Origin: an uncultured Bacilli bacterium
GTDB taxonomy: Bacteria > Bacillota_I > Bacilli_A > RF39 > UBA660
Direction: 5' to 3'
Assembly (NCBI GenBank): GCA_947628325.1
Contig: CANQZL010000001.1
Span: 1 to 41,340, forward strand
DNA: 41,340 nt
Shown here: in pieces, positions 4,704 to 32,433 of the stretch
Numbering within the stretch: position 1 is the first letter of the stretch
Layout of the letters: the number at the start of each line of letters is the position of its first letter
Program-made: the position numbers and the translations under genes
The notes under the pieces: model-generated
Database searches by the model: none
What the model saw: the letters and a program-made list of their open reading frames with translations, nothing else
Told to the model about the DNA's origin: nothing

Positions 4704-5725
4704 TTATTAGGATCTATTAATATTTTAATAGCTGCATCTACTCCAGAAGTTAATCTTTCATAGGCTTCTTGTACACCATCTAAAGAAACAATCTCATCAA
4801 CAAATCTTAACATATCTATTTTTCTTTCAGACATTAGTTTAATACATTGGGCAAATTCTTCTTTAGTATAAGCAATTGCTCCTAGAACTTTTAATTCACT
4901 CATTACTAATACAATAGAAGGTATTGTAATTGTATCCATTGATACTCCAACCATTACAACTGTTCCATTAGGTCTTGCCATTGTTAAGGCCGTTGATACT
5001 GCTGCAGAATTACCTGAGCAATCAAATACAACATCATAACCATAAGGACAATTTTTTCTGACCTCTTGAGTAAAATTTTCACTCTTTGCATCAAACCATT
5101 CATCAGCACATTTTAAAGAAACACTTTTTGCACCACGTTCTTTATTAGTTTCACTAACTGCTACATAAGAAGCCCCATTCATTTTAGCAAACATTGCACA
5201 AATATCACCTATAATACCAGCACCTATTACTAAAACTTTATCTCCTATTTTTATATTAGCAAGATTAACAGCATGTAATCCTACTGCGGTAGGTTCCACC
5301 ATTGCAACTTCAGAATCTGTAATATTACTAGGTACTTTAAAAACTAAATCACTTCTTAAAGCAGTTTTTTCAGCATATGCACCAGGATTAGTTAAAGAAA
5401 GACCAACAGCTTTATTCCATGTTTCTGGACAATATTGTGGATTACCACTTAAACAAGCTGGGCAATGCCCACAAGGTGAAATAGGTAATGCCGTTACTCG
5501 ATCTCCAACTTTTAAATCTTTTCTATTACCAGGGTTAGTAACAACACCACAAAACTCATGTCCCATAACAAGACCTTTTGGATTACCTAAGTCCCAATAG
5601 TGAATATCTGAACCACAAATACCTGTTTTTTTAACATCTATTAAAACTGAACCATCTTTTGCATTAGGTTCTTCCATTTTTGATACTTCAAATTTTTTTA
5701 CATCTTTTAGAACAACACATTTCAC
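4700..5725 (-). CDS. zinc-dependent alcohol/polyol dehydrogenase (MDR family)
   Basis: Motifs GICGSDIHYW, GHEFCGVV, the structural-Zn Cys cluster CGHCPACLSG...C, and the Rossmann motif VIGAGIIG. GTG start with an AGGAG RBS 8 nt upstream. Confidence 0.85.
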   Translation of the reverse strand: MKCVVLKDVKKFEVSKMEEPNAKDGSVLIDVKKTGICGSDIHYWDLGNPKGLVMGHEFCGVVTNPGNRKDLKVGDRVTALPISPCGHCPACLSGNPQYCPETWNKAVGLSLTNPGAYAEKTALRSDLVFKVPSNITDSEVAMVEPTAVGLHAVNLANIKIGDKVLVIGAGIIGDICAMFAKMNGASYVAVSETNKERGAKSVSLKCADEWFDAKSENFTQEVRKNCPYGYDVVFDCSGNSAAVSTALTMARPNGTVVMVGVSMDTITIPSIVLVMSELKVLGAIAYTKEEFAQCIKLMSERKIDMLRFVDEIVSLDGVQEAYERLTSGVDAAIKILIDPNK

Positions 5726-8296: not shown

Positions 8297-9580
8297 ATGG
8301 ATAAAAACTTATCAAATGAACAATTTTATATCGTATCCCTTGATAATGGCATCCGTAGGGAAGAGCCAGTTACTATTGAAGTATTCAATAGTTTTAAAGA
8401 TGGTTCAAAATTAGTTCAATTGAATCATACTGTTTTTGGTTTACTAAATACAAATAGTATTAATCCAGAAACTATGTATATAGATGATTATGCCGTAATA
8501 AAAGCTGATATAGCTGAATTATTTGATATTAATCACGAAGAAACTAAAAGGATTGTTACTGAAGATAGAAATATAGGTACATTTACAACTCTAAATTATA
8601 GTAAAAACATTGAAACCCGTATTTCTGGCACAGCAATTTTAAATAATGTAATTAAAGCTATTAATGAAGGACATATCACAGGAGATAAAGCAGTATGGGT
8701 TGATAGAGTTTTGCAATCTCCATCAGGTATCAATGGTAATCGTATTAAAGATGCTAGTCAAATTGCCGATATAATTGACTTAGGTTTATATACATTAATA
8801 GAAATTATCGAACTACAAAGTGGAGTTAAATTAGATAAGCCTTATGAAGTAGCTCTTAAGAAAAACTATTTACGTATGATTTTATTTGATTTAATAATTG
8901 GTAAAAAATATCGTGGTTTTGATTACTTTTTAATAAGTAAAATGACCGAAGAAGGAAAACCAATGTGGACTGATGCTTACTTTGCTCCAATTTCAATATC
9001 TAATAATATTGATAAAGAAAACGTAGTAGCTGATAATGAATATGTTATAAATAATAAAATTATTGATAGAGATTCAATTTTATCTGTCTTATTTTCAAAA
9101 TATCATCATGAAATCAAAAAATTAACAGAAGCTATAAATGATGCTAAAAAATTATATTCTGATGCCATAAGTAGAATAATTTATAATAATACAGATATTC
9201 AAAAAGCTAATACACTAGAAACAATGGTTTTAAAAAATTTAGATAAAATTTCTAAAATGGAAAAAGAGTATGAAGCAAAACTAGATAAAGATAAGAAAAC
9301 AAATAAAGTTGAAAAAACGATGGCTACACAAAGTTTAAATGTTAGAGTTACTGCAAAATTAGATTTAATTCAAAAAAAATATCCTATTAATCCTAAAGAT
9401 CATAAAGATCTAATTGATTCCAATAAAAAGGGTGCTAAAAAAGAAGATATAAAACTGATTGTCGAAGATGATAAAGCCAATAAAGGATTTATTGGAATTG
9501 CAGTATTAATTGCTATAGTAACATTTATATGTGGCATAGGAATAGGCGTTGCCTTTGTTTTAACACATCTTGGGAACTAA
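8297..9580 (+). CDS. hypothetical C-terminally membrane-anchored protein
   Basis: 427 aa with an AAGGAG RBS, a central coiled-coil and Lys-rich part, and a C-terminal TM helix (FIGIAVLIAIVTFICGIGIGVAFVL). The mid-region NYLRMILFDLIIGKKYRGFDYFLIS...YFAPISIS loosely recalls the HipA_C core but lacks the catalytic residues (speculative). Confidence 0.7.
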   Translation: MDKNLSNEQFYIVSLDNGIRREEPVTIEVFNSFKDGSKLVQLNHTVFGLLNTNSINPETMYIDDYAVIKADIAELFDINHEETKRIVTEDRNIGTFTTLNYSKNIETRISGTAILNNVIKAINEGHITGDKAVWVDRVLQSPSGINGNRIKDASQIADIIDLGLYTLIEIIELQSGVKLDKPYEVALKKNYLRMILFDLIIGKKYRGFDYFLISKMTEEGKPMWTDAYFAPISISNNIDKENVVADNEYVINNKIIDRDSILSVLFSKYHHEIKKLTEAINDAKKLYSDAISRIIYNNTDIQKANTLETMVLKNLDKISKMEKEYEAKLDKDKKTNKVEKTMATQSLNVRVTAKLDLIQKKYPINPKDHKDLIDSNKKGAKKEDIKLIVEDDKANKGFIGIAVLIAIVTFICGIGIGVAFVLTHLGN

Positions 9581-12341: not shown

Positions 12342-13958
12342 ATGATTATTAAAAACCCATATGGTTTTATTTCAAAACATTATAAAATAATTAATCTTCT
12401 CTTATTAGTACCAATGTTATATTTACTATTAAAATTTGGAGATATAGCAACATTTTTCAAAGATTATATTAGAGCAAGTTATTCTACTCCAGAAACTAAT
12501 TATGCTGATAAATATGTAACATTATTAACAACTGTAGTAATATTGTTTATGTTTATTATAAATCTCTTCTTATATATAATTTTACTAACTAAAAAAAGAA
12601 AAAATATCTACTTTTTATTAAATGTAGGATATAGCATAGTCCTTTTAATTTCAGCCCTATTATCTCATACAACTATGGTAGGAATGGAATCAGGAAGTGT
12701 AGATCAAACATTTATAAATTTTGTTAGAGATTTTGCTAACATTAGTAGATTTCCTATGTACATTCTCTTAATTATTGGAGCATCAGAAGGAGTAGGATTT
12801 AATTTTAAAACTTTAAAGTTTGATAATAATGCCGATTTACAAATTCATGAAGATGATGAAGAAGAAATTGAAATACGTCTTAGTAACGAAAATAATAATA
12901 ACTTTAAAAAGAATTTTATCCATATGATAAGAGAACTTAAGTATTATATTCTTGAAAATAAATTTGTCTTTCTCTGTTTTACAGGACTATTTATTATTGT
13001 TATAGGAGTATCTTTATTCCTTAATTTCCAAGTATATAATAAAAGCTATACTGTTAAACAAGCATTTAGTTTAGATAATTTTACTTTATCAGTCAAAGAA
13101 AGTTATATTACTAAAGTAGATTTTAGAGGACTAGAAATTAATAGTGATAAATACTTTTTAGCATTAAAATTAGGAATTCAAAATAATGGACAACCATCTA
13201 AAATAGATAAATCAAATTTTAGAATATATATTGGTGATGAAGTTTTATATCCTAGTTACGATAGAAGTTCAAGATTTATTGATATTGGAAAACCTTATCA
13301 AGGTCAAGATATCCCACATAATGATGAAAACAATCCTGCTGAAGATTATGTTTTTGTTTATGAACTAACAGAAAAACAAGTTAAAGGAAGCTATCAATTA
13401 AGAATATTAAATACTTTAACAAAGCAAGAAGATAAACTAATAGGTAGATATAAAACAGTTAACATAAGACCACAGACAATTTTAAAAAACGAAGACATAG
13501 GTACTGTTGGTATTGGTAAAGAAATATCATTAGAAAATACACTTCTTAATGAAACAAGTTATAAGCTAAATGATTTTGAAATAGTAACAAGCTATCCTTA
13601 TACATCAAGACTTTGTGATATGAACAAAAATTGTACTAATGTTAATGATGTTATAGTACCACATGGAGGCAGTGTTCTAGTAGTCTTATCAGATGATATT
13701 AAATGGGATGAAACGACTTCGTATTATAAAAATAGCAATAAAGACTTCTATACAGATTTTGTATATATTCAATATGAATATAGTTATGACACAACTTCAG
13801 AGCCAAAATTATATCAAGCTAAAATGAAAAATGTTACCCCATCAACTGTTACTGATAAAAAAATATATGAAGTACCAAATAGTGTATTTTATTCAAATAA
13901 GTATAATATGATAATAAGAGTAAGGAATAAAATTGCTACTATTTCTTTAAAAGAATAA
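12342..13958 (+). CDS. polytopic membrane protein with extracellular beta-sandwich-like C-terminal region
   Basis: 538 aa with an AGGAGG RBS, 4-5 N-terminal TM helices plus one more at about residue 205. The downstream segment (YFLALKLGIQNNGQPSKIDKSNFRIYIGDEVLYP) resembles the DUF4352-type pattern (low certainty). Confidence 0.7.
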   Translation: MIIKNPYGFISKHYKIINLLLLVPMLYLLLKFGDIATFFKDYIRASYSTPETNYADKYVTLLTTVVILFMFIINLFLYIILLTKKRKNIYFLLNVGYSIVLLISALLSHTTMVGMESGSVDQTFINFVRDFANISRFPMYILLIIGASEGVGFNFKTLKFDNNADLQIHEDDEEEIEIRLSNENNNNFKKNFIHMIRELKYYILENKFVFLCFTGLFIIVIGVSLFLNFQVYNKSYTVKQAFSLDNFTLSVKESYITKVDFRGLEINSDKYFLALKLGIQNNGQPSKIDKSNFRIYIGDEVLYPSYDRSSRFIDIGKPYQGQDIPHNDENNPAEDYVFVYELTEKQVKGSYQLRILNTLTKQEDKLIGRYKTVNIRPQTILKNEDIGTVGIGKEISLENTLLNETSYKLNDFEIVTSYPYTSRLCDMNKNCTNVNDVIVPHGGSVLVVLSDDIKWDETTSYYKNSNKDFYTDFVYIQYEYSYDTTSEPKLYQAKMKNVTPSTVTDKKIYEVPNSVFYSNKYNMIIRVRNKIATISLKE

Positions 13959-14173: not shown

Positions 14174-15271
14174 TTATAAATTATTTAACATATTAGTCAT
14201 TTGTTCTAACTCGCTTTTATACATATGAGTATACGTATTTAACGTAATAGATATATTTGAATGACCTAAATATTTTGACACTAATGCAATACTTGCTCCT
14301 TTATTAATTAACAGACTAGCACAACTATGTCTAAAATCATGAATTCTTATTTGTTTTACTCCTGCTAGACGACAATATTTATCTTTTCTTATTTGTATTG
14401 TATTTTCCGATAATGGTCTAGTATTTCCGAATATAAACCACTCATCAGAATAATCAACATAATGTTGAGCATTTTCTTTTAATGTTTTTAAGTCCTTTGT
14501 AAGGTTTTTTGTTAAAGGTATAACTCTTATACTATTTTTAGTCTTAGGGCTGGAAATTGTCCATTTCTCGCCTTTTATTTTAGTGGTTAATGTTTTAGTT
14601 ATATTTACGATTCCTTTTTTAAAATCTATATCGTTCCACGTTAAAGCGATACATTCTCCTTTTCTTAAACCTAAGAAATATAACATTTCAAAAAAAGTAT
14701 GCCAATCTAAATCATCGATTACTTTATCAAATTGTAAATATTCTTCATAAGTAAAAAATTGCATTTCTTTTTTTTGCTTTCCAACATCTTTAAAATTCTC
14801 TATAAATTTTATTAATGAATCACTAGTATTGTAATATATATTAGCATATCTTATTAATCTTTTAAATAAACCTAATATTTTATTTTTATATATAACACCT
14901 ACTGGTGTTTCTTTTAACTCGATAAGCCATCTACGATATACATTTAAATCTATAGCATTTACTTTATATTTTCCTAAAGGTTTTATATGTCTGTAGAAGT
15001 TAACATCTTTTATTATTGTTTGTTTCTTCACTAATGTTTTCTGAACTTCTAAGAAATCATAAAAAACTTGCTCTAATGTTATATTACTGGTATTTGCTTT
15101 ATTATCGGATATCTTAATACGATATCTTGCCTCTTCTTCGTCTGCCTCTTTTTTTGTTTTAAATTTAGGAGAAGTATAATCGTGCGAAATACCATAAATA
15201 TCTTTATATTTTATTCTAAAGAAATATTGTCTACCATCTTTAGTAGGCTTTTTTGATTTATATACTGCCAT
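14174..15271 (-). CDS. phage integrase, tyrosine recombinase
   Basis: Catalytic signature GLRKGE (Arg), HDFRHSCAS (H-x-x-R-H), LGHSNISITLNTYTH (His, Tyr), plus an N-terminal arm-binding-type domain. The ATG at 15271 has an AAGGAG RBS; the track start at 15280 is an upstream GTG. Confidence 0.92.
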   Translation of the reverse strand: MAVYKSKKPTKDGRQYFFRIKYKDIYGISHDYTSPKFKTKKEADEEEARYRIKISDNKANTSNITLEQVFYDFLEVQKTLVKKQTIIKDVNFYRHIKPLGKYKVNAIDLNVYRRWLIELKETPVGVIYKNKILGLFKRLIRYANIYYNTSDSLIKFIENFKDVGKQKKEMQFFTYEEYLQFDKVIDDLDWHTFFEMLYFLGLRKGECIALTWNDIDFKKGIVNITKTLTTKIKGEKWTISSPKTKNSIRVIPLTKNLTKDLKTLKENAQHYVDYSDEWFIFGNTRPLSENTIQIRKDKYCRLAGVKQIRIHDFRHSCASLLINKGASIALVSKYLGHSNISITLNTYTHMYKSELEQMTNMLNNL

Positions 15272-15382
15272 ATTAATCACTCCTTATTTCTATTGAATAG
15301 GAAGTAAATCTATGATAAAATAAATACATAGAAAAACTCCTATTGCGTATTGGTTTTTTTCTATAGGGCTTTATGCCTTTTT

Positions 15383-15413: not shown

Positions 15414-16082
15414 TCACTGTTTGTATTTGTTGCATTGTTCTATTTTTTTATCTATCATATCTTTAAAATCTAATTTATATTTAACGGCTTTTTTATAGTA
15501 TTTTATTGCTGAATCATAATCTTTTATTTTTGTGTAATTTTCAGCTAATTGAAAATATATATTATATCTATGATCTTTTAATTTTTCTTTAGCCGAATCG
15601 TAATAGTTACCACCGCTTTCATCATAAAAGCCTTGATTAATTAATAACTTAGTGTAATATATAGAAGATTTTGCAAAACAATTATAATTCCATGAACACC
15701 ATTTAGCAATTTGATTAGTAATCTTAGGTTTTTTAGGTGTTCCTAATAGAGCTAGACAAGTTGAAAACCATAAATATCTATCTGGTATTAAATCCCATGA
15801 TGGCTCATCAAATTGTGACAGTGTATTAAGTGAAATATAAACACCATTTGAATTTTTAGTTTTATTATATAAATCTGTATATTTATCAAGTTGTTTTAAA
15901 TATTTATTATAGATATCATTAAGTCTAGGATATGTTTTTTTCAATTTATGCAAAATAGCAATAATAGAAACATATCCATCTACATCGTTATTTTTACTTA
16001 CTGTATCTATTAAGTTATAAATATATTCATCGATTACTTCTTTTTCAGTATATTCCATCTTTTCTTTATTAAAAAACATCAT
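15414..16082 (-). CDS. TPR-like cytoplasmic protein, lysogeny-module cargo
   Basis: 222 aa with no signal peptide and a C-terminal TPR-like motif (LAENYTKIKDYDSAIKYYKKAVKY). Its start overlaps the repressor stop (TAATG at 16080-16084), implying translational coupling. Confidence 0.75.
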   Translation of the reverse strand: MMFFNKEKMEYTEKEVIDEYIYNLIDTVSKNNDVDGYVSIIAILHKLKKTYPRLNDIYNKYLKQLDKYTDLYNKTKNSNGVYISLNTLSQFDEPSWDLIPDRYLWFSTCLALLGTPKKPKITNQIAKWCSWNYNCFAKSSIYYTKLLINQGFYDESGGNYYDSAKEKLKDHRYNIYFQLAENYTKIKDYDSAIKYYKKAVKYKLDFKDMIDKKIEQCNKYKQ

Positions 16083-16729
16083 TATAATTTCGTCCTCTTT
16101 TCTACAGCAATACCTACAACTCTTATAGGTAATTGCTCAACTTGTTCTTTTGAAAACATCATAATATCATAAGCTGTATTATATGGTTGTAAAACGATAC
16201 CATTATCATTAACTAATAATTTTTTAAATGTTGATTCTGTTCCATTAATCATAATGGCCACGTCTTTACCATTATACATTTCCTTATCATCGTTTTGTTC
16301 AAAGATAACTATATCGTTTTCACTATACTTTGGAAACATTGAATCTCCACTAATTTTTAGTCCATAAAACTTTTTCCCACCTTTGGTCCATTCTTTAGGA
16401 ATATCTATATATTCAATAATATCCGATTGACTTTCTATTGGGATTCCAGCTCTAATAGTTCCGTAGACTGGAATTTTTGCAATATCTGAATTTATATCTA
16501 CCAAAGTACCGTTATCAAATATTATTGGTGGAAAAAAATCATTAATTGAAATTTTAAAATATTCTGCCAACTTAAATAATACATCTTGATTAGCTTCTAA
16601 AATTCCACTTTCATATCGTGAAACTGTTTGGGATGTTGTGTTAAGGTATTCTCCTAATTCTTGTTGTGTGATATTTTTACTTGTTCTATAGAACTTTATT
16701 TTTTCTCCAACATACTTCGAAACATTCAT
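16082..16729 (-). CDS. CI/LexA-like phage repressor (XRE HTH + S24 peptidase)
   Basis: N-terminal HTH (ITQQELGEYLNTTSQTVSRYESG). C-terminal S24 Ser/Lys dyad (ISGDSMFP ... TFKKL). AAGGAGGG RBS. Confidence 0.9.
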   Translation of the reverse strand: MNVSKYVGEKIKFYRTSKNITQQELGEYLNTTSQTVSRYESGILEANQDVLFKLAEYFKISINDFFPPIIFDNGTLVDINSDIAKIPVYGTIRAGIPIESQSDIIEYIDIPKEWTKGGKKFYGLKISGDSMFPKYSENDIVIFEQNDDKEMYNGKDVAIMINGTESTFKKLLVNDNGIVLQPYNTAYDIMMFSKEQVEQLPIRVVGIAVEKRTKL

Positions 16730-25458: not shown

Positions 25459-25959
25459 ATGGCAAAGAATCAAATCTGGTTAACAGAAGAATCTCTTCTT
25501 CTAATTGAAGGATGGGCAAGAGATGGACTGACCGATACAGAGATATCCAAAAAGATGAGAATCTCAAGAAACACACTTTATAAATGGATAAAATTATATC
25601 CAGAAATAAAAGAAGCGATAAAAAAAGGCAAAGTAATAGCCGACTACAAAGTAGAAGATTCATTGTTTAAAAAGACACAAGGATATACAGTACAAGTCAA
25701 AAAAAATTTCAAGCTAAAAAATGTTAAATATGGAAAAAATGGTAAAAAGATAAGTGAAACAGAAGAGTTAGTGGCTGTGTATGATGAGCTTCATATTCCT
25801 GCCGATACAGGAGCTATAATATACTGGTTAAAATGTAGAAAAGCTGATAAGTGGAATGAAATAATAAGTAAAAATTCAGCTGCTAATGATATAGAAGATT
25901 TAACACCACTAGCAAAAATGTTAGGATTCGATAGCGATGAAACTAACACAGACAATTAA
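25459..25959 (+). CDS. terS: terminase small subunit
   Basis: 166 aa with an N-terminal HTH (LTDTEISKKMRISRNTLYKWIK), immediately upstream of and overlapping terL. Confidence 0.8.
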   Translation: MAKNQIWLTEESLLLIEGWARDGLTDTEISKKMRISRNTLYKWIKLYPEIKEAIKKGKVIADYKVEDSLFKKTQGYTVQVKKNFKLKNVKYGKNGKKISETEELVAVYDELHIPADTGAIIYWLKCRKADKWNEIISKNSAANDIEDLTPLAKMLGFDSDETNTDN

Positions 25960-27298
25960 TTGGCTACCATTTAGTAATAAACATGTTAACTATATATTAG
26001 CTTGTAAAAATAATAAAGCCAATGTTGCAGAAGGAGCTGTTAGAGCAGCGAAAACTATCTGTAATTGTATTGCATTTTCTTTATGTTTAGAATATTCAAA
26101 AGACAAATTTCACTTAGCTAGTGGTTCAACATTGGCCAATGCTAAATTAAATATTGGAGATTGTAACGGATATGGACTTGAACATCTTTTTAGAGGAAGA
26201 TGTCATTGGGGGAAATACAAAGAGAATGATGCATTGTTTGTAAATACTAAAACTGGAGAAAAAATAATAATATTTGCTGGTGGAGGTCAAGCTGATAGTT
26301 ACAAAAAAATATTAGGTAACTCTTATGGCTTATGGATAGCTACAGAAATAAATGAACACTATGATAGTGAAGATTCGAAAGAATCATTTATAAAAGTAGC
26401 ATTTGCTCGACAATTAGCTTCTTATAATCCCAAATGGTTCTGGGATTTAAATCCATCAAATCCAAATTCATCTATATATACTGAATACATTGATTCATGG
26501 AAAATAAAAGGATTAATAGGTGGTTATAATTATCAGCATTTTAATATTTATGATAATGCAGCTATAACAGAAGAAAGAAAAAAAGAAATTATTAGTCAGT
26601 ATGACATTAATAGTATTTGGTATCAAAGAGATATTCTAGGATTAAGAGTAGTCGCTGAAGGGAGAATATATCAAGAATTTAAAAAATACCATGTTATTAA
26701 AATGCCTGAATGGAATGAAATTGATGAGAACGGAAACTATACTCATTCGTTAAGAAAAGCATTAAAGTTCATTACGATAGGTATTGATTTTGGTGGTAAT
26801 GGTTCTGCACATTCATTTAATGCTACAGGCTTTTGTGAAGGCTTTAAAAAATTTATTACAATTAAGCAAAAAAGAATAAATAAAAGAATTGACGATATTA
26901 AATTAACACAAGAATTTATTAAATTCATTAAAGAGTTAAAAGAAGAATATCCAAACGTTAATATTGTTGATATCAGATGTGATTCTGCTGAGCAAACTCT
27001 GATTGCAGGATTTGAAAAAGCATTAATTGAGAATAATTTAGGAATACCAATCAATAATGCAATAAAAGGTTTAATTTTAAATAGAATTAGATTTTATTGT
27101 AAAATGTTCAGTACAAATAAATATTATATTCTTGAATGTTGTGAAGATTTAATAAATGCTTTTAATACAGCTATATACAATCCGAAGAATAAAAAAGAAG
27201 ATGAGAGATTAGATGATGGAACGCAAGATATAGATAGTCTAGATGCTCAAGAATATTCAACAGAGCCTTACATGACAATACTAATTCAAACAGGTTAA
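25937..27298 (+). CDS. terL: terminase large subunit
   Basis: 453 aa. Deviant Walker A AEGAVRAAKT, Walker B-like LWIATEINE, and a C-terminal nuclease-type acidic residue pattern. Synteny with terS and portal. Confidence 0.88.
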   Translation: MKLTQTINWLPFSNKHVNYILACKNNKANVAEGAVRAAKTICNCIAFSLCLEYSKDKFHLASGSTLANAKLNIGDCNGYGLEHLFRGRCHWGKYKENDALFVNTKTGEKIIIFAGGGQADSYKKILGNSYGLWIATEINEHYDSEDSKESFIKVAFARQLASYNPKWFWDLNPSNPNSSIYTEYIDSWKIKGLIGGYNYQHFNIYDNAAITEERKKEIISQYDINSIWYQRDILGLRVVAEGRIYQEFKKYHVIKMPEWNEIDENGNYTHSLRKALKFITIGIDFGGNGSAHSFNATGFCEGFKKFITIKQKRINKRIDDIKLTQEFIKFIKELKEEYPNVNIVDIRCDSAEQTLIAGFEKALIENNLGIPINNAIKGLILNRIRFYCKMFSTNKYYILECCEDLINAFNTAIYNPKNKKEDERLDDGTQDIDSLDAQEYSTEPYMTILIQTG

Positions 27299-27309
27299 GA
27301 GGTGATTAT

Positions 27310-28698
27310 ATGGAACAAGTAGTGAAAGATTTCTTAAGAGAAATCGGATATAGCGAAAATATAATTGATAATGAACAAGAAAAACGTGTCTCAAACTGGC
27401 TGAGATGGTATAAAGGTAAACCAAAAGAATATAAATATAAAATTTATAATGGTAAAAAATTTGTAAGTAGAACATTAAAATCATTAGAAATTATTCCACA
27501 AAGCTGTAGTGATTTAAGTGATTTCTTTTTTAATGAAAAATTAGAAATCACAATAGATAATAAACAAGTTGATGAAAAGATAAAAGATTGTTTGAAACAA
27601 AACAATTTTTTAAGTAATTCAAATAAATTAATGCAGCTTGTAAAAGCACTTGGTACTGGAGCATATGTTCCATACTTAAAGGACAATGTTTTAAAAATTA
27701 ATTACATCAAAGCTCCAAATATAATAATATTGGACGGTACACAAGAGAATGTCAATAGTGTTCTTTTTTGGACGATATCTAAAAAGCTAGATAAAGAAGA
27801 ATTAATTATTAATGCTCATTTGTTAAAAGATGAAGGATATGTAATTTATAATAGAAAATATGAGAAAGATAAAAATGGCGATTTTAAAAAGGTAACTTTA
27901 CCAGATGATTTAGAATATATTGAAACAAAATCATTCTTACCTAAATTTTCTATATTATTTACAACAGAAGTTAATAATCACGATATTAATAGTCCGTATG
28001 GCATAAGTTGTTATGCAAACGCATTAGATATAGTTCTGTCACTTGATAGAGCATATGATAGTTTCGATAATGAAATATGCTTAGGTAAAAAGAGAGTATA
28101 TGTTCCAGCAAATAGACTCCAATTTAATATTAGTGAATCTGGAGAGACAGTTCCAGTATTTGATGAAAATGATGTAACTTTTTATACATATCCAGGAAAA
28201 GATAACGATAAATTAGAGGAGAGTGATTTTAAATTAAGAATTGAAGAAATAACATCAGCTATTCAAGCACAGTTAAATTTGTATACATCAAAAATCGGAT
28301 TAGGTAATAATTTTTATAAATTTAAAGATGGACAAGTTTATGTTAATACGGATAATGTTATTTCAACAAATAGTGATTTGTTTAGAAAGATAAGAAAACA
28401 AGAGAATATAATAACTCAAGCTATAACAGATTTAATATATGCTATAGCTGAATTAATAGGGGTTAAAGAAAAATTTAGTATATCAATTTTTTACGATGAT
28501 TCGATTATTGAAGATACAGAGAAAATAAAAAAACAAGCTTTATCAGAATATAACGCAAAATTAATTAGCAAACCTCAATATTTCAGAAATGTTTATAAGT
28601 TAAAAGATAAGGAAGCAATTAAATTTGTTGACAAAATGAATAAAGAGATTGTCGATAAAACAATAACAGATGGTACTGAATTTGAATTAACGGAGTGA
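27310..28698 (+). CDS. portal protein (SPP1 gp6-like)
   Basis: 462 aa, located between terL and the MuF gene. AAGAGGTG RBS. Confidence 0.85.
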   Translation: MEQVVKDFLREIGYSENIIDNEQEKRVSNWLRWYKGKPKEYKYKIYNGKKFVSRTLKSLEIIPQSCSDLSDFFFNEKLEITIDNKQVDEKIKDCLKQNNFLSNSNKLMQLVKALGTGAYVPYLKDNVLKINYIKAPNIIILDGTQENVNSVLFWTISKKLDKEELIINAHLLKDEGYVIYNRKYEKDKNGDFKKVTLPDDLEYIETKSFLPKFSILFTTEVNNHDINSPYGISCYANALDIVLSLDRAYDSFDNEICLGKKRVYVPANRLQFNISESGETVPVFDENDVTFYTYPGKDNDKLEESDFKLRIEEITSAIQAQLNLYTSKIGLGNNFYKFKDGQVYVNTDNVISTNSDLFRKIRKQENIITQAITDLIYAIAELIGVKEKFSISIFYDDSIIEDTEKIKKQALSEYNAKLISKPQYFRNVYKLKDKEAIKFVDKMNKEIVDKTITDGTEFELTE

Positions 28699-28702
28699 AA
28701 AA

Positions 28703-30319
28703 ATGAATGAAGAATATATAAAAGATGCTATTGAAAAAATAGTCGAGATATATTCTGATATTGAAAATGACTTACTAATAGAAATAGCGAGTCATTTTTC
28801 TTTGAATGAAGAATTTATTAATAGTGATTTCTGGCGATTAAAAAAATTAGATGAGATGAGTTTGTTAAATAATAAAACTATGAATATATTATCTGATTTA
28901 ACAAATAGATCTCCTAAAGAACTGAAAAAAGCAATAAATAATCTAGGATATAAGATGCTTAATTACGATTATTTAAAAGATGAATATGAAAATAATCATT
29001 TGCAAATCAATCCAGATATATTAATAAAAAATAGAACTATTCAAAATATAATAAAAACAGCTTATGATGAAACAAATGATAGTTTAATAAGAATATCAAA
29101 TAAAATAAGTGAATCTGTTAGAGCTTCCTATTTAGAAGTGTTGGAAGGATCTTATTTGAAAATATCTATGGGAACACATTCTTATCAAGAAGCGATAAGG
29201 AGTTCAATTAATGATTTATCAAATGAAGGAATTATTACATTAACTTTAAATACGACTGATGAAAGAGGAAGAGTTACAGGAATTAGAAATTATGATGTTG
29301 AAGGTACAGTAAGAAGAGATTTACTAACAAGTGTTAGAAAATTAAATAATGATATAAGTAATGATGTGGCCAATGAATTAAATTGTGAATACCTTTATTT
29401 ATCGGAACATTTAAGATGTAGGCCAACACATTTTGACTGGCAAGGAACAATAATAAAAAAAGAAGATCTAGAGAAAGTTACTGGGTATGGTACAGGAGGA
29501 GGTTTGGGTGGACCAAATTGCTCTCATTATTTTGAACCATACTTCGGAGATGCTAGAGGAAGCGATTTAAAGAGCATTTCTAAAGCAAATGCTGAAAAAG
29601 AATATTATTTATCTCAACATCAAAGATATCTCGAGCGAGGTGTCAGAAAATGGCTTAGAAAAGCAAATATGTATAAAGCAGCAGATGATGATGAATATTT
29701 TAAAAAATGTAATAAAAAAGTAAAAGAATGGCGTTTAAGAACGAAAGAATTTACTGAAAAATATAATCTTAAACGTGATTTTACTAGGGAATATGTTAAT
29801 GATAAAAGTATTGAAAATTTGTCTATTAATCACAATACAAAAGATAATAAAGAAGTATTAAAAGAATATTTGGGAAATACTCCTAAAAAAGATTTTGTTA
29901 AAACAATTAAGCAATACGAAAATGAAATAGTTGACCAATCTATTGAAAACGCTATAATAATAGAGGAAAACGGAGATGTTTATAGATTTGTTGGTTCAAG
30001 AGATTATGTAAATATTACTGGTAATTTTAAAAACGCTATAATTACTCATAACCATATAGGTTTAGATGATGAGTTGGGTGGTTCTTTTGGCAAAGACGAT
30101 TTTAATTTATTAGTAAGACATCAAAACATAAGAGAACTTAGGGAAGTTGATGAGAAATATCTTTACACTATGAAAGCGTTATCCAAGATAAAAGAAAGTG
30201 ATTATGATGACGCATATAGAAATGTTAGATTAATCGATGATGATGATTATAAACATCTAGTTATGAAAGTTTTAAATGATAAGGGTTTGATTAAGTATGA
30301 AAGAACAATTAGAAAATGA
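28703..30319 (+). CDS. head morphogenesis protein (MuF / SPP1 gp7 family) with an extra ~150-aa C-terminal domain
   Basis: The MuF core runs to about residue 370 (RCRPTHFDWQGT..., GGPNCSHYFEPY). The C-terminal extension contains IITHNHIGLDDELGGSFGKDDF. Confidence 0.8.
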   Translation: MNEEYIKDAIEKIVEIYSDIENDLLIEIASHFSLNEEFINSDFWRLKKLDEMSLLNNKTMNILSDLTNRSPKELKKAINNLGYKMLNYDYLKDEYENNHLQINPDILIKNRTIQNIIKTAYDETNDSLIRISNKISESVRASYLEVLEGSYLKISMGTHSYQEAIRSSINDLSNEGIITLTLNTTDERGRVTGIRNYDVEGTVRRDLLTSVRKLNNDISNDVANELNCEYLYLSEHLRCRPTHFDWQGTIIKKEDLEKVTGYGTGGGLGGPNCSHYFEPYFGDARGSDLKSISKANAEKEYYLSQHQRYLERGVRKWLRKANMYKAADDDEYFKKCNKKVKEWRLRTKEFTEKYNLKRDFTREYVNDKSIENLSINHNTKDNKEVLKEYLGNTPKKDFVKTIKQYENEIVDQSIENAIIIEENGDVYRFVGSRDYVNITGNFKNAIITHNHIGLDDELGGSFGKDDFNLLVRHQNIRELREVDEKYLYTMKALSKIKESDYDDAYRNVRLIDDDDYKHLVMKVLNDKGLIKYERTIRK

Positions 30320-30488
30320 ATTAAAAATATGGGAAGAAGAATATTTAAAAGCTAAAGAAAAATTAGAAAAAGAGCATCCGTATATAGTCAATCAATTAAA
30401 TGATCATCATCCAGTTAATGAATTAAACAAAAAATATTTTGAAAAGAAAAGAAAAATAATAGAAAAATATAAAGCACCCGAAAAATAG
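30297..30488 (+). CDS. small helical protein (63 aa)
   Basis: It overlaps the MuF 3' end by 23 nt and has a K/E-rich coding-like composition. Without it, a 195-nt gap would remain. Confidence 0.5.
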   Translation: MKEQLENELKIWEEEYLKAKEKLEKEHPYIVNQLNDHHPVNELNKKYFEKKRKIIEKYKAPEK

Positions 30489-30513
30489 AGTGCTTTTATT
30501 ATGGAGTAAAAAA

Positions 30514-30846
30514 ATGAAATTTAAGATAAATGATGTAGAGTATGAAATAATTGAAGTTAATCAAAATGAATTTATAAAGACAAAAGAAGAAGCACAAGAT
30601 GAAAATTATTTTCTATGGGGGCAAACAAGATTTGATACATTTAAAGTTTTGATATATAAAGATTTACCCATAGGACAAAAAAGGAAAACTTTAATGCATG
30701 AATTAATGCATATATATCTAAAAAGTTATATTACAAATGAGAACTTAGAAAATATAACCGAAGAAATAATGTGTGATATATCAGCAAATTCACACGATAT
30801 TATTAACAAAATAGTTATAGAATATTTTAAAAACACTACTTCATAG
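30514..30846 (+). CDS. ImmA/IrrE-like (M78, DUF955-type) zinc metallopeptidase
   Basis: The motif WGQTRFDTFKVLIYKDLPIGQKRKTLMHELMHIYL carries HEXXH in the context typical of the family. The ATG at 30514 has a GGAG RBS; the track start at 30490 is a GTG. Confidence 0.6.
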   Translation: MKFKINDVEYEIIEVNQNEFIKTKEEAQDENYFLWGQTRFDTFKVLIYKDLPIGQKRKTLMHELMHIYLKSYITNENLENITEEIMCDISANSHDIINKIVIEYFKNTTS

Positions 30847-30850
30847 GTAG

Positions 30851-30896
30851 TGTGAAATCTATTATTCAGGAATACGAGGGCTGGATAGATTTCACA
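30851..30896 (+). other. perfect 12-bp stem hairpin with 22-nt loop
   Basis: TGTGAAATCTAT (30851-30862) pairs with ATAGATTTCACA (30885-30896). It starts 5 nt after the peptidase stop. Confidence 0.7.
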
Positions 30897-30915
30897 GTGC
30901 TTATAAAATAGCACT

Positions 30916-30943
30916 AAAGTCGATATTTATATCGGCTTTTATT
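30916..30943 (+). terminator. rho-independent terminator after the packaging/MuF block
   Basis: Stem AAAGTCGATA/TATCGGCTTT (one G-U pair) with a 4-nt loop, then a T-rich tail TTTTATT. Confidence 0.5.
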
Positions 30944-31024
30944 ATGCCTTTTACTTAGTTAGGTTGAAAACTAAGGTGTGGGAATTACTTTGTTACCCAA
31001 ATAAAAAAATAGAGGAGAAAATTT

Positions 31025-31561
31025 ATGGAAGACGAAAAAAAACCAGTTACTCAGCCTGAAGAAAAAACTGAGGTGCCTGTTACTCAAACAGATGAAAAAA
31101 CTGAGGGGAAGACTTTTACTCAAGAAGAAGTAAATGCTATGGTTATAAAAGCTGAAAATAAAATCAATAAAAAATATGAAAATATTGATTTAGAAGCTTA
31201 TAACAAGTGGCAAGAGAGTCAAAAAACAGAAGCTGAAAAGCAGACAGAGTTAACTCAGAAATTAACAAATACTAATAACGAAAATATCTCATTAAAGCAA
31301 GAAAACCAAGTTTTAAAAACTGGTGTAAATGTTGATGATGTTGATTATGTAGTTTTTAAAGTATCAAAAATGGAAGGTGAATTCGAGGATAACCTAAAGG
31401 AATTTTTAGAGAAAAATCCTAAATATCTTGAAAATAACAAAAAACAAGCAAATACATCTACTACTACTGGATTCGACCAGAATAGTACGAGTAATCCAGT
31501 AAGTGATGAAAAAGCATATAAAGATAAAAAATATGCCAAGAATCCATATTATAAAAAATAA
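31025..31561 (+). CDS. capsid scaffolding protein (DUF4355-like)
   Basis: 178 aa, acidic and Gln-rich with coiled-coil character, directly upstream of the major capsid gene. AGAGGAG RBS. Confidence 0.75.
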   Translation: MEDEKKPVTQPEEKTEVPVTQTDEKTEGKTFTQEEVNAMVIKAENKINKKYENIDLEAYNKWQESQKTEAEKQTELTQKLTNTNNENISLKQENQVLKTGVNVDDVDYVVFKVSKMEGEFEDNLKEFLEKNPKYLENNKKQANTSTTTGFDQNSTSNPVSDEKAYKDKKYAKNPYYKK

Positions 31562-31572
31562 AAGAAAGAAGG

Positions 31573-32433
31573 ATGATAAAAGTGAAATATGGTGACGATT
31601 TTGTAGATGAACAATATTCAGATATATTAGAGCCTAATCTATATACTGATAATGTAATGATTCCAGACGTTACGTACAATGCCCAATATGAAGGCGATGT
31701 ACACTCTGGTTTAGTTCATATATATAAAGAGAAGAAATCTGGCAGAAAGGATCCTAAAACTCCAGCATCAGATTTTGAAGATGAAAAAACAGAAAATGAT
31801 TTAATTGATTTGAGATTAAATAATACTTATCAAAAATCTAAAAAGATTTATCAAGTTACTGCAAATTCATGCTCTTACGATAAAGCTGAAGTAAATTTAA
31901 GTAATTGTGTAAATGAAAATAAAGAAGATAGACAAGCTTCTGCATTAGCATGTTTGATTAATGAAGGAACAAAAGTTACTGTTGAAGCAAAAACTATAAC
32001 TGAAAAAGTAATTGAAATTAGAAAGAGCATCAGAAAAAAACATGCTTATCCTGATATTGTTTTTGCGTCAGTTGATGCATTTGCTCAAATGCTTAAAGAG
32101 GCAGGTAATAAATATACTCCAACGACAAATGATATGATAATAACATCTGGCCGTGTAGGTGTTTATTTAGGTATGACTTGGTTTGAAGTTGATGCATTTG
32201 AAGGAACTGCTAAATATTATGACTTCTCTGGAGCATTAAAAGAAATTAATCTAGATGATGTTGAATTAGTCGTATATGATCATAGTACCTTACATTTAGC
32301 TGATAATTTAAGCATGATGAGATTAAAAGATTCTGAGCACTTCACAGGTGTAAAAGCTCAAAATGAAATTAATACAGGCTTTAGAGTTACTAATAAAGAT
32401 AAAGTAGCTTATACTACATCAATTCCCAGCTGA
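31573..32433 (+). CDS. major capsid protein
   Basis: 286 aa, called from its position after the scaffold and before the connector genes. The start is ambiguous (ATG 31573 or GTG 31582). Confidence 0.75.
   Translation: MIKVKYGDDFVDEQYSDILEPNLYTDNVMIPDVTYNAQYEGDVHSGLVHIYKEKKSGRKDPKTPASDFEDEKTENDLIDLRLNNTYQKSKKIYQVTANSCSYDKAEVNLSNCVNENKEDRQASALACLINEGTKVTVEAKTITEKVIEIRKSIRKKHAYPDIVFASVDAFAQMLKEAGNKYTPTTNDMIITSGRVGVYLGMTWFEVDAFEGTAKYYDFSGALKEINLDDVELVVYDHSTLHLADNLSMMRLKDSEHFTGVKAQNEINTGFRVTNKDKVAYTTSIPS

Follow-up and report, generated by a model that had tools for sequence, protein, structure and literature searches.

Cargo fused to the MuF or portal proteins of phages is thought to be injected together with the phage DNA, and most such C-terminal extensions are unannotated. 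MuF polymorphic toxins with small downstream ORFs are known from temperate phages (Zhang et al., 2012; Jamet et al., 2017, PMC5576092), and about 75% of the toxin domains of MuF proteins have homologues among other families of polymorphic toxins (Jamet et al., PMC5576092). Injected effectors fused to MuF and portal proteins, as well as RadC domains in polyvalent proteins, have also been described (PMC5512222). Iyer et al. (2017, PMC5512222) argued that nucleic acids or nucleotides are the likely targets of the RadC-type JAB domains of polyvalent proteins, and LfgB/YfjY, a RadC paralogue of the RadC-type JAB group from an E. coli prophage, degrades MqsA and casein in vitro (PMC10846083).

The window, i.e., the whole 41,340-nt stretch of DNA that was analysed, contains a prophage, as indicated by genes for an integrase (PF00589; 14174-15280, minus strand) and for a repressor with HTH_3 and Peptidase_S24 domains (16082-16729, minus strand) upstream of the head genes and by host-type genes farther out. 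The carrier is probably a temperate siphophage of low-GC gut Bacilli. Its head module is ordered TerL (25937-27298), SPP1-type portal (PF05133; 27310-28698), MuF (28703-30319, plus strand; 538 aa), scaffold and capsid, with the portal gene directly before the MuF gene. A 63-aa ORF (30297-30488, plus strand) and a gene for a minimal HEXXH metallopeptidase of 110 aa, probably of the M78 (ImmA/IrrE) clan (30514..30846, plus strand), follow the MuF gene. A sequence-only reading of this DNA had described the 538-aa MuF protein with an extra C-terminal domain, the overlapping 63-aa ORF and the 110-aa HEXXH peptidase, all of which were borne out by the domain searches and ORF calls, and both of the sequence strings that it quoted (IITHNHIGLDDELGGSFGKDDF and KRKTLMHELMHIYL) are present. 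The MuF of the window is recorded on at least 10 contigs, and the trio of 538, 63 and 110 aa was found at all three of the places shown; given this recurrence and the invariance or near-invariance of the H-x-H...S...D residues across a family of hundreds of clusters, a chance arrangement is ruled out. In the INPHARED phage set, megablast and tblastn gave no match to the region or to the peptidase.

The MuF protein comprises a core of the Phage_min_cap2 type (residues 1-351; 28703..29755, plus strand), which matches PF06152 with 214.5 bits against a cut-off of 26.3 (E 2.8e-63) and phrog_581, "minor head protein" (E 1.2e-70), a linker outside both PF06152 and the JAB-like profile (residues 352-390; 29756..29872, plus strand) and a C-terminal domain of ~148 aa (residues 391-538; 29873..30319, plus strand), which is predicted from its conserved residues and AF2 model to be a JAB/MPN-like metallohydrolase. 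About 185 of the 538 residues lie beyond the end of PF06152. Like the MuF polymorphic toxins (PMC5576092), the protein has an N-terminal MuF region, a variable C-terminal extension and an adjoining small ORF, and it is encoded in a Firmicutes-type prophage. Orthologous cores also bear known toxin domains in the same slot: the alignments of sister MuF proteins to the window protein end at about residue 360-368, and behind cores that are 54-60% identical to that of the window are found CdiA_C (PF18451), ADPrib_exo_Tox (PF03496, twice), a HEMGH zincin and JAB-like tails. In five of six cases, the tail on an orthologous core is followed by an ORF of 62-80 aa within 4-35 nt of overlap, while the nearest ORF downstream of the CdiA_C tail begins 140 nt away. 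Unlike the catalogued MuF toxin domains, the window's C-terminal domain lies outside that catalogue and has no Pfam model, and a toxin role for it is a prediction. Judged by its sequence, the locus has the polymorphic-effector architecture already known for MuF proteins, and its putative effector is an unannotated JAB-like domain. The earlier comparison to a MuF toxin with a downstream immunity gene has strong backing from both the tail swaps (CdiA_C, ART and zincin) and the presence of a small ORF at 13 of 13 loci with the JAB-like domain.

We hold with moderate confidence that the locus is a MuF polymorphic effector cassette, in which a JAB-like hydrolase would be injected, the 63-aa protein would serve as its inhibitor and the M78 gene is a separate entity. 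The MuF core would function as a portal-associated minor head protein that exits the capsid with the DNA and carries a swappable C-terminal effector; the JAB-like domain would be packaged with MuF and become active in the newly infected cell. It is improbable that the extension is instead a conserved assembly or maturation module of gp7 (e.g., a protease for the processing of MuF, scaffold or portal), with the small ORF encoding a chaperone. Such a role would be in keeping with the high frequency of the domain on three MuF Pfam families and on portals, with its not being seen on other toxin-delivery scaffolds, with the presence of a scaffold in a phage in which no prohead protease could be recognised from the ORF list and Pfam, and with the position of the small ORF directly upstream of the scaffold gene. 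However, CdiA_C, ART or zincin tails take the place of the domain in sister phages whose portal, MuF core, scaffold and capsid are homologous, some short MuF proteins have no tail at all, and the domain can stand as a separate gene. Because sister phages swap the tail or go without it, the domain is not required to build this type of head, and the idea that the extension is simply a conserved structural part of gp7 is unlikely to hold.

The sequence-only reading regarded the arrangement as unusual, but the domain is far from rare. Word-indexed protein searches found one relative of the tail with the sequence and nine with a profile, and the family itself was revealed by an exhaustive profile HMM search, in which it comprised 722 clusters at 50% identity. 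In 142 of the top 150 hits, the domain ends at most 15 aa from the C-terminus. Among 73 long representatives, the carriers were Phage_Mu_F (31), Phage_min_cap2 (22) and VG15 (7) proteins, and no N-terminal domain other than those of the MuF type was found. The domain also occurs in a portal+NUDIX fusion, in a polyvalent protein with four copies of it after MuF+DRAT and as a separate gene after MuF. In the family alignments, E415, H449, N450, H451, F462 and Y532 are conserved at 96-100% and S461 and D465/D466 at 87-99%, which gives a near-invariant signature of E...HNH(P)...SF..DD. Of these, E415, H449, H451, S461 and D465/D466 are putative catalytic residues, among which Glu415 would act as general base, and the metal ligands are predicted to be His449, His451 and Asp466. 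What is new is the delimitation of a very widespread, unannotated family with a clear catalytic-type signature, a confident model and an obligately linked small partner gene.

Unlike typical MuF toxin domains, the JAB-like domain was, in the top 150 hits, confined to MuF, portal and polyvalent proteins of phages, with no carrier of non-MuF polymorphic-toxin delivery systems among them. This restriction, together with the tandem copies, speaks against an effector reading, and tandem copies in particular are odd for a classic toxin.

The fold of the domain can be assigned best, though remotely, to the JAB/MPN-like (RadC-related) metal-dependent hydrolases, so that the loose likeness to JAB/MPN proposed by the sequence-only reading stands together with its remark on the non-canonical spacing. 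The HMM and structure searches that it called for gave a split outcome: the extension is a discrete, enzyme-like domain with an AF2 model of pLDDT 92.6, whose strands and helices follow the order expected of a JAB core, but residues 391-538 had no match in Pfam, NCBIfam, PADLOC or PDB sequences, and a PDB sequence search with the tail profile returned chance-level matches only. In BFVD, the Foldseek neighbours of the domain were MuF fusions first and then, as weak matches, viral proteins annotated as DUB (E 9e-4), cytidine deaminase (3.9e-3), RadC (6e-3), MPN (1e-2) and JAB (3e-2). Against the PDB, Foldseek gave no match at E<=1e-3, and of the matches with consistent TM-scores the best were deaminase-fold proteins (cytidine and blasticidin deaminases; TM 0.33-0.40, not significant). 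A first AF2 model, built from a two-sequence alignment, gave no useful Foldseek result, with the AF2198 JAB structure at E 1.6. Sequence models of JAB, RadC and Prok-JAB did not match the window domain or 35 family members at E<=10, hhalign against E. coli RadC paralogues reached a probability of 16.7% over 27 columns, and the matches of PF04002 (Pfam RadC) were local and confined to two tandem relatives, P0188 with 28.8 bits against a cut-off of 22.1 and P0178 with 20.6 bits.

The domain resembles the RadC-type JAB domains (PMC5512222), including that of LfgB/YfjY (PMC10846083), in its HNHP-centred motif with a Glu upstream and Ser/Asp downstream, and in that it is found in prophages and, beside ART domains, in giant multi-domain proteins of phages. 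It differs from RadC (PSG-x3-PS-x2-D) by a loop of 7-9 residues between HNH and Ser followed by S-x4-D, by an extra C-terminal helix-helix-strand unit that bears the conserved H518 and Y532, and by the lack of a PF04002 match in the window domain itself. The family spacing of HNH-x7-9-S-x4-D, compared to the canonical HxH-x7-S-x2-D, places the departure in the distance from Ser to Asp.

The JAB-like domain would most likely be a protease that acts on a host or competitor protein. Less likely, although it deserves serious consideration, is a RadC-like activity on nucleic acids or nucleotides (a nuclease or a hydrolase of nucleotide signals), with the rest of the cassette working as proposed above. 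This possibility draws on the view of RadC-type JAB domains in polyvalent proteins held by Iyer et al. (PMC5512222), on the deaminases that are the best, though not significant, fold neighbours in the PDB and on the viral deaminase at 3.9e-3 in BFVD, on the one carrier that also has a NUDIX domain and on the joint travel of MuF/gp7 with DNA. However, proteolysis was observed in the single biochemical study that concerns a RadC-type JAB protein (PMC10846083), the constellation of E, HxH, S and D is that of the JAMM peptidases, and no nucleic-acid-binding domain is fused to the window protein.

The 63-aa ORF, which encodes a charged, probably helical protein, shares 23 nt with the end of the MuF gene, read in the +1 frame, and is the proposed cognate partner (immunity protein or inhibitor) of the JAB-like domain. 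An overlapping ORF of 55-90 aa lies 3' of the domain at all 13 distinct loci, be the domain borne by MuF, by portal or encoded as a stand-alone gene, while 11 MuF loci that lack the domain have no such small ORF. Of the two downstream ORFs for which co-conservation had been suggested as a check, the small one was present at every locus and the peptidase gene at 2 of 13. The 63-aa ORF is homologous to the small ORF of locus L111 (z 6.9, 0 of 2000 shuffles; z 4.2 when the overlapped first 8 residues are left out) and was independently predicted by gene callers on public contigs. Its match to the profile of the small-ORF family is at E 0.038 only, and leave-one-out profile searches established homology for no more than about 7 of the 12 small ORFs tested (E<0.01), with the small ORF of L118 undetected.

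It is hardly credible that the 63-aa ORF is no real gene and that its frame is open by chance in a sequence that is AT-rich and Lys/Glu-rich. It is true that the leave-one-out profile has no significant match to it unless its nearest relative is included, that BLASTP with composition correction found nothing for it against L001, and that it has no match in Pfam, PHROG or PADLOC. Against this explanation stand the ORFs of similar size in the same overlapping position at 13 of 13 loci of very different GC and carriers, the mutual detection of 7 of the 13 small ORFs at E<0.01, the independent gene-caller predictions and the match to L111 that persists without the overlapped residues. DUF987, encoded by the small gene that follows RadC paralogues in E. 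coli, was considered as a relative of the 63-aa ORF and dropped on inspection of composition and sequence pattern. For a +1 frameshift fusion of MuF with the 63-aa ORF, nothing speaks beyond the shared frame.

In the effector cassette that we favour, the 63-aa gene is probably translationally coupled to MuF, and its product would bind and silence the JAB-like domain in the producing cell. Given the late-operon position of the gene, an immunity protein encoded there is not obviously protective for lysogens. A more specific proposal, which we regard as unlikely but worth stating, is that the domain represents a large, hitherto unrecognised class of virion-delivered isopeptidases or proteases directed against host immunity (a CBASS or Bil ubiquitin-like conjugate, an antitoxin or a repressor), with the 60-aa partner acting as an inhibitor before packaging. 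If this is true, the system would be one of anti-defence and not an interbacterial toxin, with entry together with the DNA on MuF or portal carriers, and the partner, which evolves fast, would be dedicated to inhibition ahead of packaging. As a putative pair of enzyme and inhibitor, the two proteins would be tractable for the study of toxicity or anti-defence.

The peptidase ORF was called at 30490-30846 (118 aa from GTG), but translation almost certainly begins at the ATG at 30514, which gives 110 aa, because a GGAG lies ~6 nt upstream of this ATG and all homologues begin with MKFKIN. Its HEXXH motif is HELMH. PF06114 gives 20.8-21.0 bits on the window peptidase against a cut-off of 22 and matches 25 of 28 members of its family (best E 8e-9), which comprises 101 clusters and has an invariant C-terminal motif of its own, CDISANSHDIIHKIVEDYF; PADLOC had no match to the window peptidase. 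Like ImmA/IrrE (M78) and CapP, to which a family member matches at 1.5e-6, the peptidase has its HEXXH in an M78-profile context, and like the minimal zincin selecase MJ1213, to which it aligns weakly over the full length (E 0.12), it is ~110 aa long. It is much shorter than ImmA, IrrE and CapP and has its own C-terminal motif. Also unlike ImmA/IrrE, the family has no neighbouring HTH/XRE repressor gene: in a Pfam scan of 99 immediate same-strand neighbours at ~50 loci, no HTH family was present among the 25 listed of 33 neighbour families. The earlier observations that the peptidase has no adjacent XRE substrate and that the S24 repressor lies far away (16082-16729) therefore apply as made, the former for the family as well.

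As a combination of three genes, the earlier reading fared less well. The peptidase is missing at 11 of 13 distinct JAB-like loci, and an 86% identical copy lies behind a zincin-tailed MuF and small ORF at locus L121. In the window it lies between the 63-aa ORF and the scaffold gene, and across ~50 loci its immediate neighbours are heterogeneous (portal, YopX, HNH, TerS and methylases), with members of the family also found before TerL, in the gaps between TerL and portal and between portal and short MuF, and in early regions. The identity of 86% between the peptidases of the window and L121, compared to only 54% between their MuF cores, suggests independent mobility. From these comparisons, the peptidase gene stands outside the unit of MuF and 63-aa ORF and is best described as an accessory gene of its own that is horizontally mobile; the M78-clan zincin would happen to occupy the same variable slot of the MuF-scaffold region and have its own, separate target.

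Releasing peptidases occur in other polymorphic toxin systems, and by analogy the three genes might form one unit, with the M78 peptidase serving to free or activate the MuF tail or to break down the 63-aa inhibitor. The genes do indeed lie side by side in one orientation, both in the window and on each shown contig with this MuF, the peptidase of L121 likewise lies directly behind a MuF tail and small ORF, and at least 6 other loci have the peptidase family beside MuF or portal genes. We nevertheless consider a single unit very improbable, as the peptidase is absent from most JAB-like loci, occurs beside tail-less short MuF genes and also in early or terminase-proximal positions, has heterogeneous neighbours and is far more similar between the two phages than their MuF cores are. 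Orphan M78-clan zincins of ~110 aa thus appear to roam independently around gut-phage packaging modules, with no repressor partner. This point and the JAB-like domain family both extend current understanding and overturn none of it.

A promoter scan around the cassette gave nothing above the shuffled expectation. Between the peptidase and scaffold genes, RNA folding predicts two strong hairpins (30847..30950, plus strand; -37.4 kcal/mol, z -5.76), and none of 200 shuffles folds as well; Rfam had no family at threshold for them. The second hairpin is terminator-like, with GTCGATAT-TTAT-ATATCGGC followed by a T-rich run, and a comparable hairpin plus TTTTATTATG lies ahead of the scaffold gene at loci L120 and L122.

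The window contained a prophage of low GC (~26%), with an integrase (14174-15280) and an HTH_3+Peptidase_S24 repressor (16082-16729) on the minus strand. Its head module encoded TerL (25937-27298), an SPP1-type portal (27310-28698), the 538-aa MuF protein (28703-30319, plus strand), a 63-aa ORF (30297-30488, plus strand) that overlapped the MuF stop by 23 nt, a 110-aa HEXXH peptidase (30514-30846, plus strand), a 178-aa scaffold-like protein (31025-31561) and the capsid protein (31573-32433). The ATG at 30514 is most likely the start of the peptidase ORF, hence its 110 aa, given the upstream GGAG and the MKFKIN at the N-terminus of all homologues. PF06152 (Phage_min_cap2) covered only residues 1-351 of the MuF protein (214.5 bits), so the extension beyond the MuF core is real. 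This MuF protein was recorded on at least 10 public contigs, and the 538/63/110-aa trio was found in 3 of the 3 places shown among them. All the elements observed in the sequence-only reading were borne out. Just beyond the integrase end of the prophage were large ORFs of 538 aa (12342-13958, plus strand) and 427 aa (8297-9580, plus strand) that had no match in Pfam. A gene at 15414-16082 (minus strand) encodes 222 aa with a TPR repeat at the C-terminus; it has the same orientation as the S24 repressor gene, shares one base of its start with the stop of that gene and may belong to the lysogeny switch.

A genome scan identified five prophages from MAGs (labelled Bacilli or Clostridia in four cases and Muribaculaceae in one) with MuF cores 54-60% identical to that of the window over residues ~3-365 and with homologous scaffold and capsid genes downstream. 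Their MuF tails were a JAB-like domain 32% identical to that of the window (L118), a CdiA_C toxin (L119; PF18451), an ADP-ribosyltransferase (L120 and L122; PF03496) and a zincin with HEMGH...FAECFA (L121). A sixth MuF match, L123, was cut at the contig end and had a further tail of no assigned type. An ORF of 62-80 aa followed 4 of the 5 sister tails and shared 4 to 41 nt with the MuF gene, while the nearest ORF to the CdiA_C tail began 140 nt downstream. This tail swapping, the defining behavior of polymorphic toxin/effector loci as described for MuF (PMC5576092), rules out the extension being a fixed structural part of gp7, the finding that would have undone the earlier proposal, and shows the JAB-like domain to occupy a slot that recognized toxins fill elsewhere. 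The locus has the known architecture of MuF polymorphic effectors (PMC5576092), and its putative effector is of an unannotated, JAB-like family that has a small partner of its own.

Residues ~391-538 had no match in Pfam, NCBIfam, PADLOC or PDB sequences, and a word-indexed search returned one homologue of 139 aa. When 1.84 billion cluster representatives were searched exhaustively with a profile, 722 proteins passed E<=1e-3, of which 164 also passed E<=1e-10. Of the 150 best hits, 142 had no more than 15 residues between the end of the domain and the C-terminus. Among 73 representatives of 300-700 aa, the N-terminal domains were Phage_Mu_F (31), Phage_min_cap2 (22) and VG15 (7). The domain was also found as a stand-alone gene directly 3' of MuF and in a portal+NUDIX fusion (P0107). 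At L112 (2022-4626) and L113, a partner ORF of 79 aa overlaps the end of such an 814-aa fusion (portal PF06381, NUDIX and JAB-like domain), and a separate short MuF comes next; portals as well as MuF proteins thus carry the domain. Giant polyvalent proteins, seen as proteins and not as loci, carried 3-5 tandem, more RadC-like copies (P0188, P0186 and P0178): P0188 combined MuF, a DRAT-type ADP-ribosyltransferase and four copies, and P0186 three copies and DnaJ. A distant version (E ~1e-11) occurred in a 248-aa protein on some 30 large viral contigs (L023-L054 of IMG/VR, many ~60-120 kb), where no small same-strand ORF of the partner family was found downstream; L023 had none listed.

In 13 of 13 distinct loci inspected, the JAB-like gene was overlapped at its 3' end by an ORF of 55-90 aa, whether the locus held a MuF fusion, a stand-alone gene, a degraded prophage or the portal+NUDIX fusion. 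A matching small ORF was found in 0 of 11 MuF loci without the JAB-like domain, with a search profile built from the same partner ORFs. In leave-one-out profile searches of 12 ORFs, seven were mutually detectable at E<0.01. The 63-aa ORF of the window matched the partner family only at E 0.038 and was clearly related to the L111 ORF, which accompanies the closest relative of its JAB-like domain (z 6.9, 0/2000 shuffles; z 4.2 when the first eight, overlapped residues were left out). The L118 ORF, outside the leave-one-out set, was not detected by the family profile. The partner, given its constant overlap and the limited mutual detection of its sequences, is thus invariant in position but fast-evolving in sequence, the latter being typical of immunity proteins. 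A loose parallel is found in the CP4 prophages of E. coli K-12, where the genes of the RadC-like JAB paralogues YkfG, YeeS and LfgB/YfjY are each directly followed by a DUF987 gene of ~70 aa (L115 6027-6733, L116 4309-5039 and L117 6387-7078); the sequences of DUF987 and the window partner look unrelated. A 9-bp stem-loop (30471-30496) spans the stop of the 63-aa ORF to just upstream of the peptidase start; a scanner called it terminator-like on the minus strand, and TTATTAT follows it on the plus strand.

In 113 aligned domains, E415, H449, N450, H451, F462, D466 and Y532 were 96-100% conserved, S461 89%, D465 87% and P452, which is Ile in the window, 80%. These residues would form a JAMM-type constellation (Glu, HxH, Ser and Asp) with non-canonical spacing. 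The AlphaFold2 model built from a 35-sequence alignment (pLDDT 92.6, pTM 0.87) comprised a helix, a strand from the Glu, a hairpin, a strand to HNH, a helix from SF..DD and a further hairpin, a predicted order that is that of the JAB core. Foldseek gave no PDB match at E<=1e-3; of the weaker matches with consistent TM-scores, the best were to cytidine and blasticidin deaminases (TM 0.33-0.40), whose fold is considered to be shared with JAB (Iyer et al., PMC5512222). Among predicted viral structures, the top hits were "minor capsid protein" fusions (E 2e-11 downwards), followed by weaker hits to a deubiquitination hydrolase (9e-4), a deaminase (4e-3), RadC (6e-3 and 7e-3), an MPN protein (1e-2) and a JAB protein (3e-2). 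Pfam RadC (PF04002; cut-off 22.1 bits) scored 28.8 bits on one P0188 repeat and 20.6 bits on P0178, while hhalign aligned the G...V...HNHP segment with four E. coli RadC paralogues at a probability of only 16.7%. The loose JAB/MPN resemblance noted earlier stays the best, if remote, assignment for the domain. Metal-dependent hydrolysis is its very probable activity, and it is probably a divergent relative of JAB/RadC, though only a candidate member of that group.

With regard to packaging, activity, substrate and inhibition, we infer that the hydrolase would enter the capsid on MuF, leave it with the DNA, still on MuF, and act early in the infected cell, while the co-translated small protein would prevent its activity in the producer. 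Protease activity is favored, given the JAMM-like site and the reported degradation of MqsA and casein by LfgB, a RadC paralogue from a prophage (PMC10846083); a nucleic acid or nucleotide substrate, as proposed for RadC by Iyer et al. (PMC5512222), is a serious alternative. The tandem copies of the domain speak against a classic interbacterial toxin, as does the finding that, among the 150 best hits, it was not seen on other toxin-delivery scaffolds. For these two reasons we lean towards a phage-specific role, possibly in anti-defence.

The peptidase was one of a tight family (101 clusters, 104-115 aa) with an invariant HEL.H and a C-terminal CDISANSHDIIHKIVEDYF motif. The window protein fell just below the PF06114 cut-off, which 25 of 28 relatives passed; one relative matched CapP, and the nearest solved sequence was the 110-residue minimal zincin MJ1213 (E 0.12, non-significant). 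The genes of the peptidase family lay between the portal and a short MuF in four loci (L002, L003, L006 and L065); their other sites were upstream of TerS or TerL, between TerL and the portal, or within the early genes. The 99 immediate neighbors encoded portals, YopX, HNH endonucleases, MuF, small and large terminases and DNA methylases by Pfam, and no HTH family was among the 25 neighbor families listed, in agreement with the suggestion that this peptidase lacks an adjoining repressor partner. The L121 copy (4979-5311), 3' of the zincin-tailed MuF, was 86% identical (95/110 residues) to that of the window (30514-30846), while the adjoining MuF cores were only 54% identical and their tails differed, which suggests recent horizontal transfer of the peptidase gene. 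Together with its varied sites and its absence from 11 of the 13 JAB-like loci, this copy shows the orphan M78-clan zincin to be an independent, mobile accessory gene adjoining the MuF cassette, separate from it. The single combination of extension, mini-ORF and peptidase first envisaged accordingly does not stand.

Two very stable hairpins were predicted 3' of the peptidase gene (30847-30950; -37.4 kcal/mol, z -5.76). They had no match to an Rfam family, and the second resembles an intrinsic terminator. A similar hairpin with TTTTATTATG precedes the scaffold gene in the peptidase-less L120 and L122.
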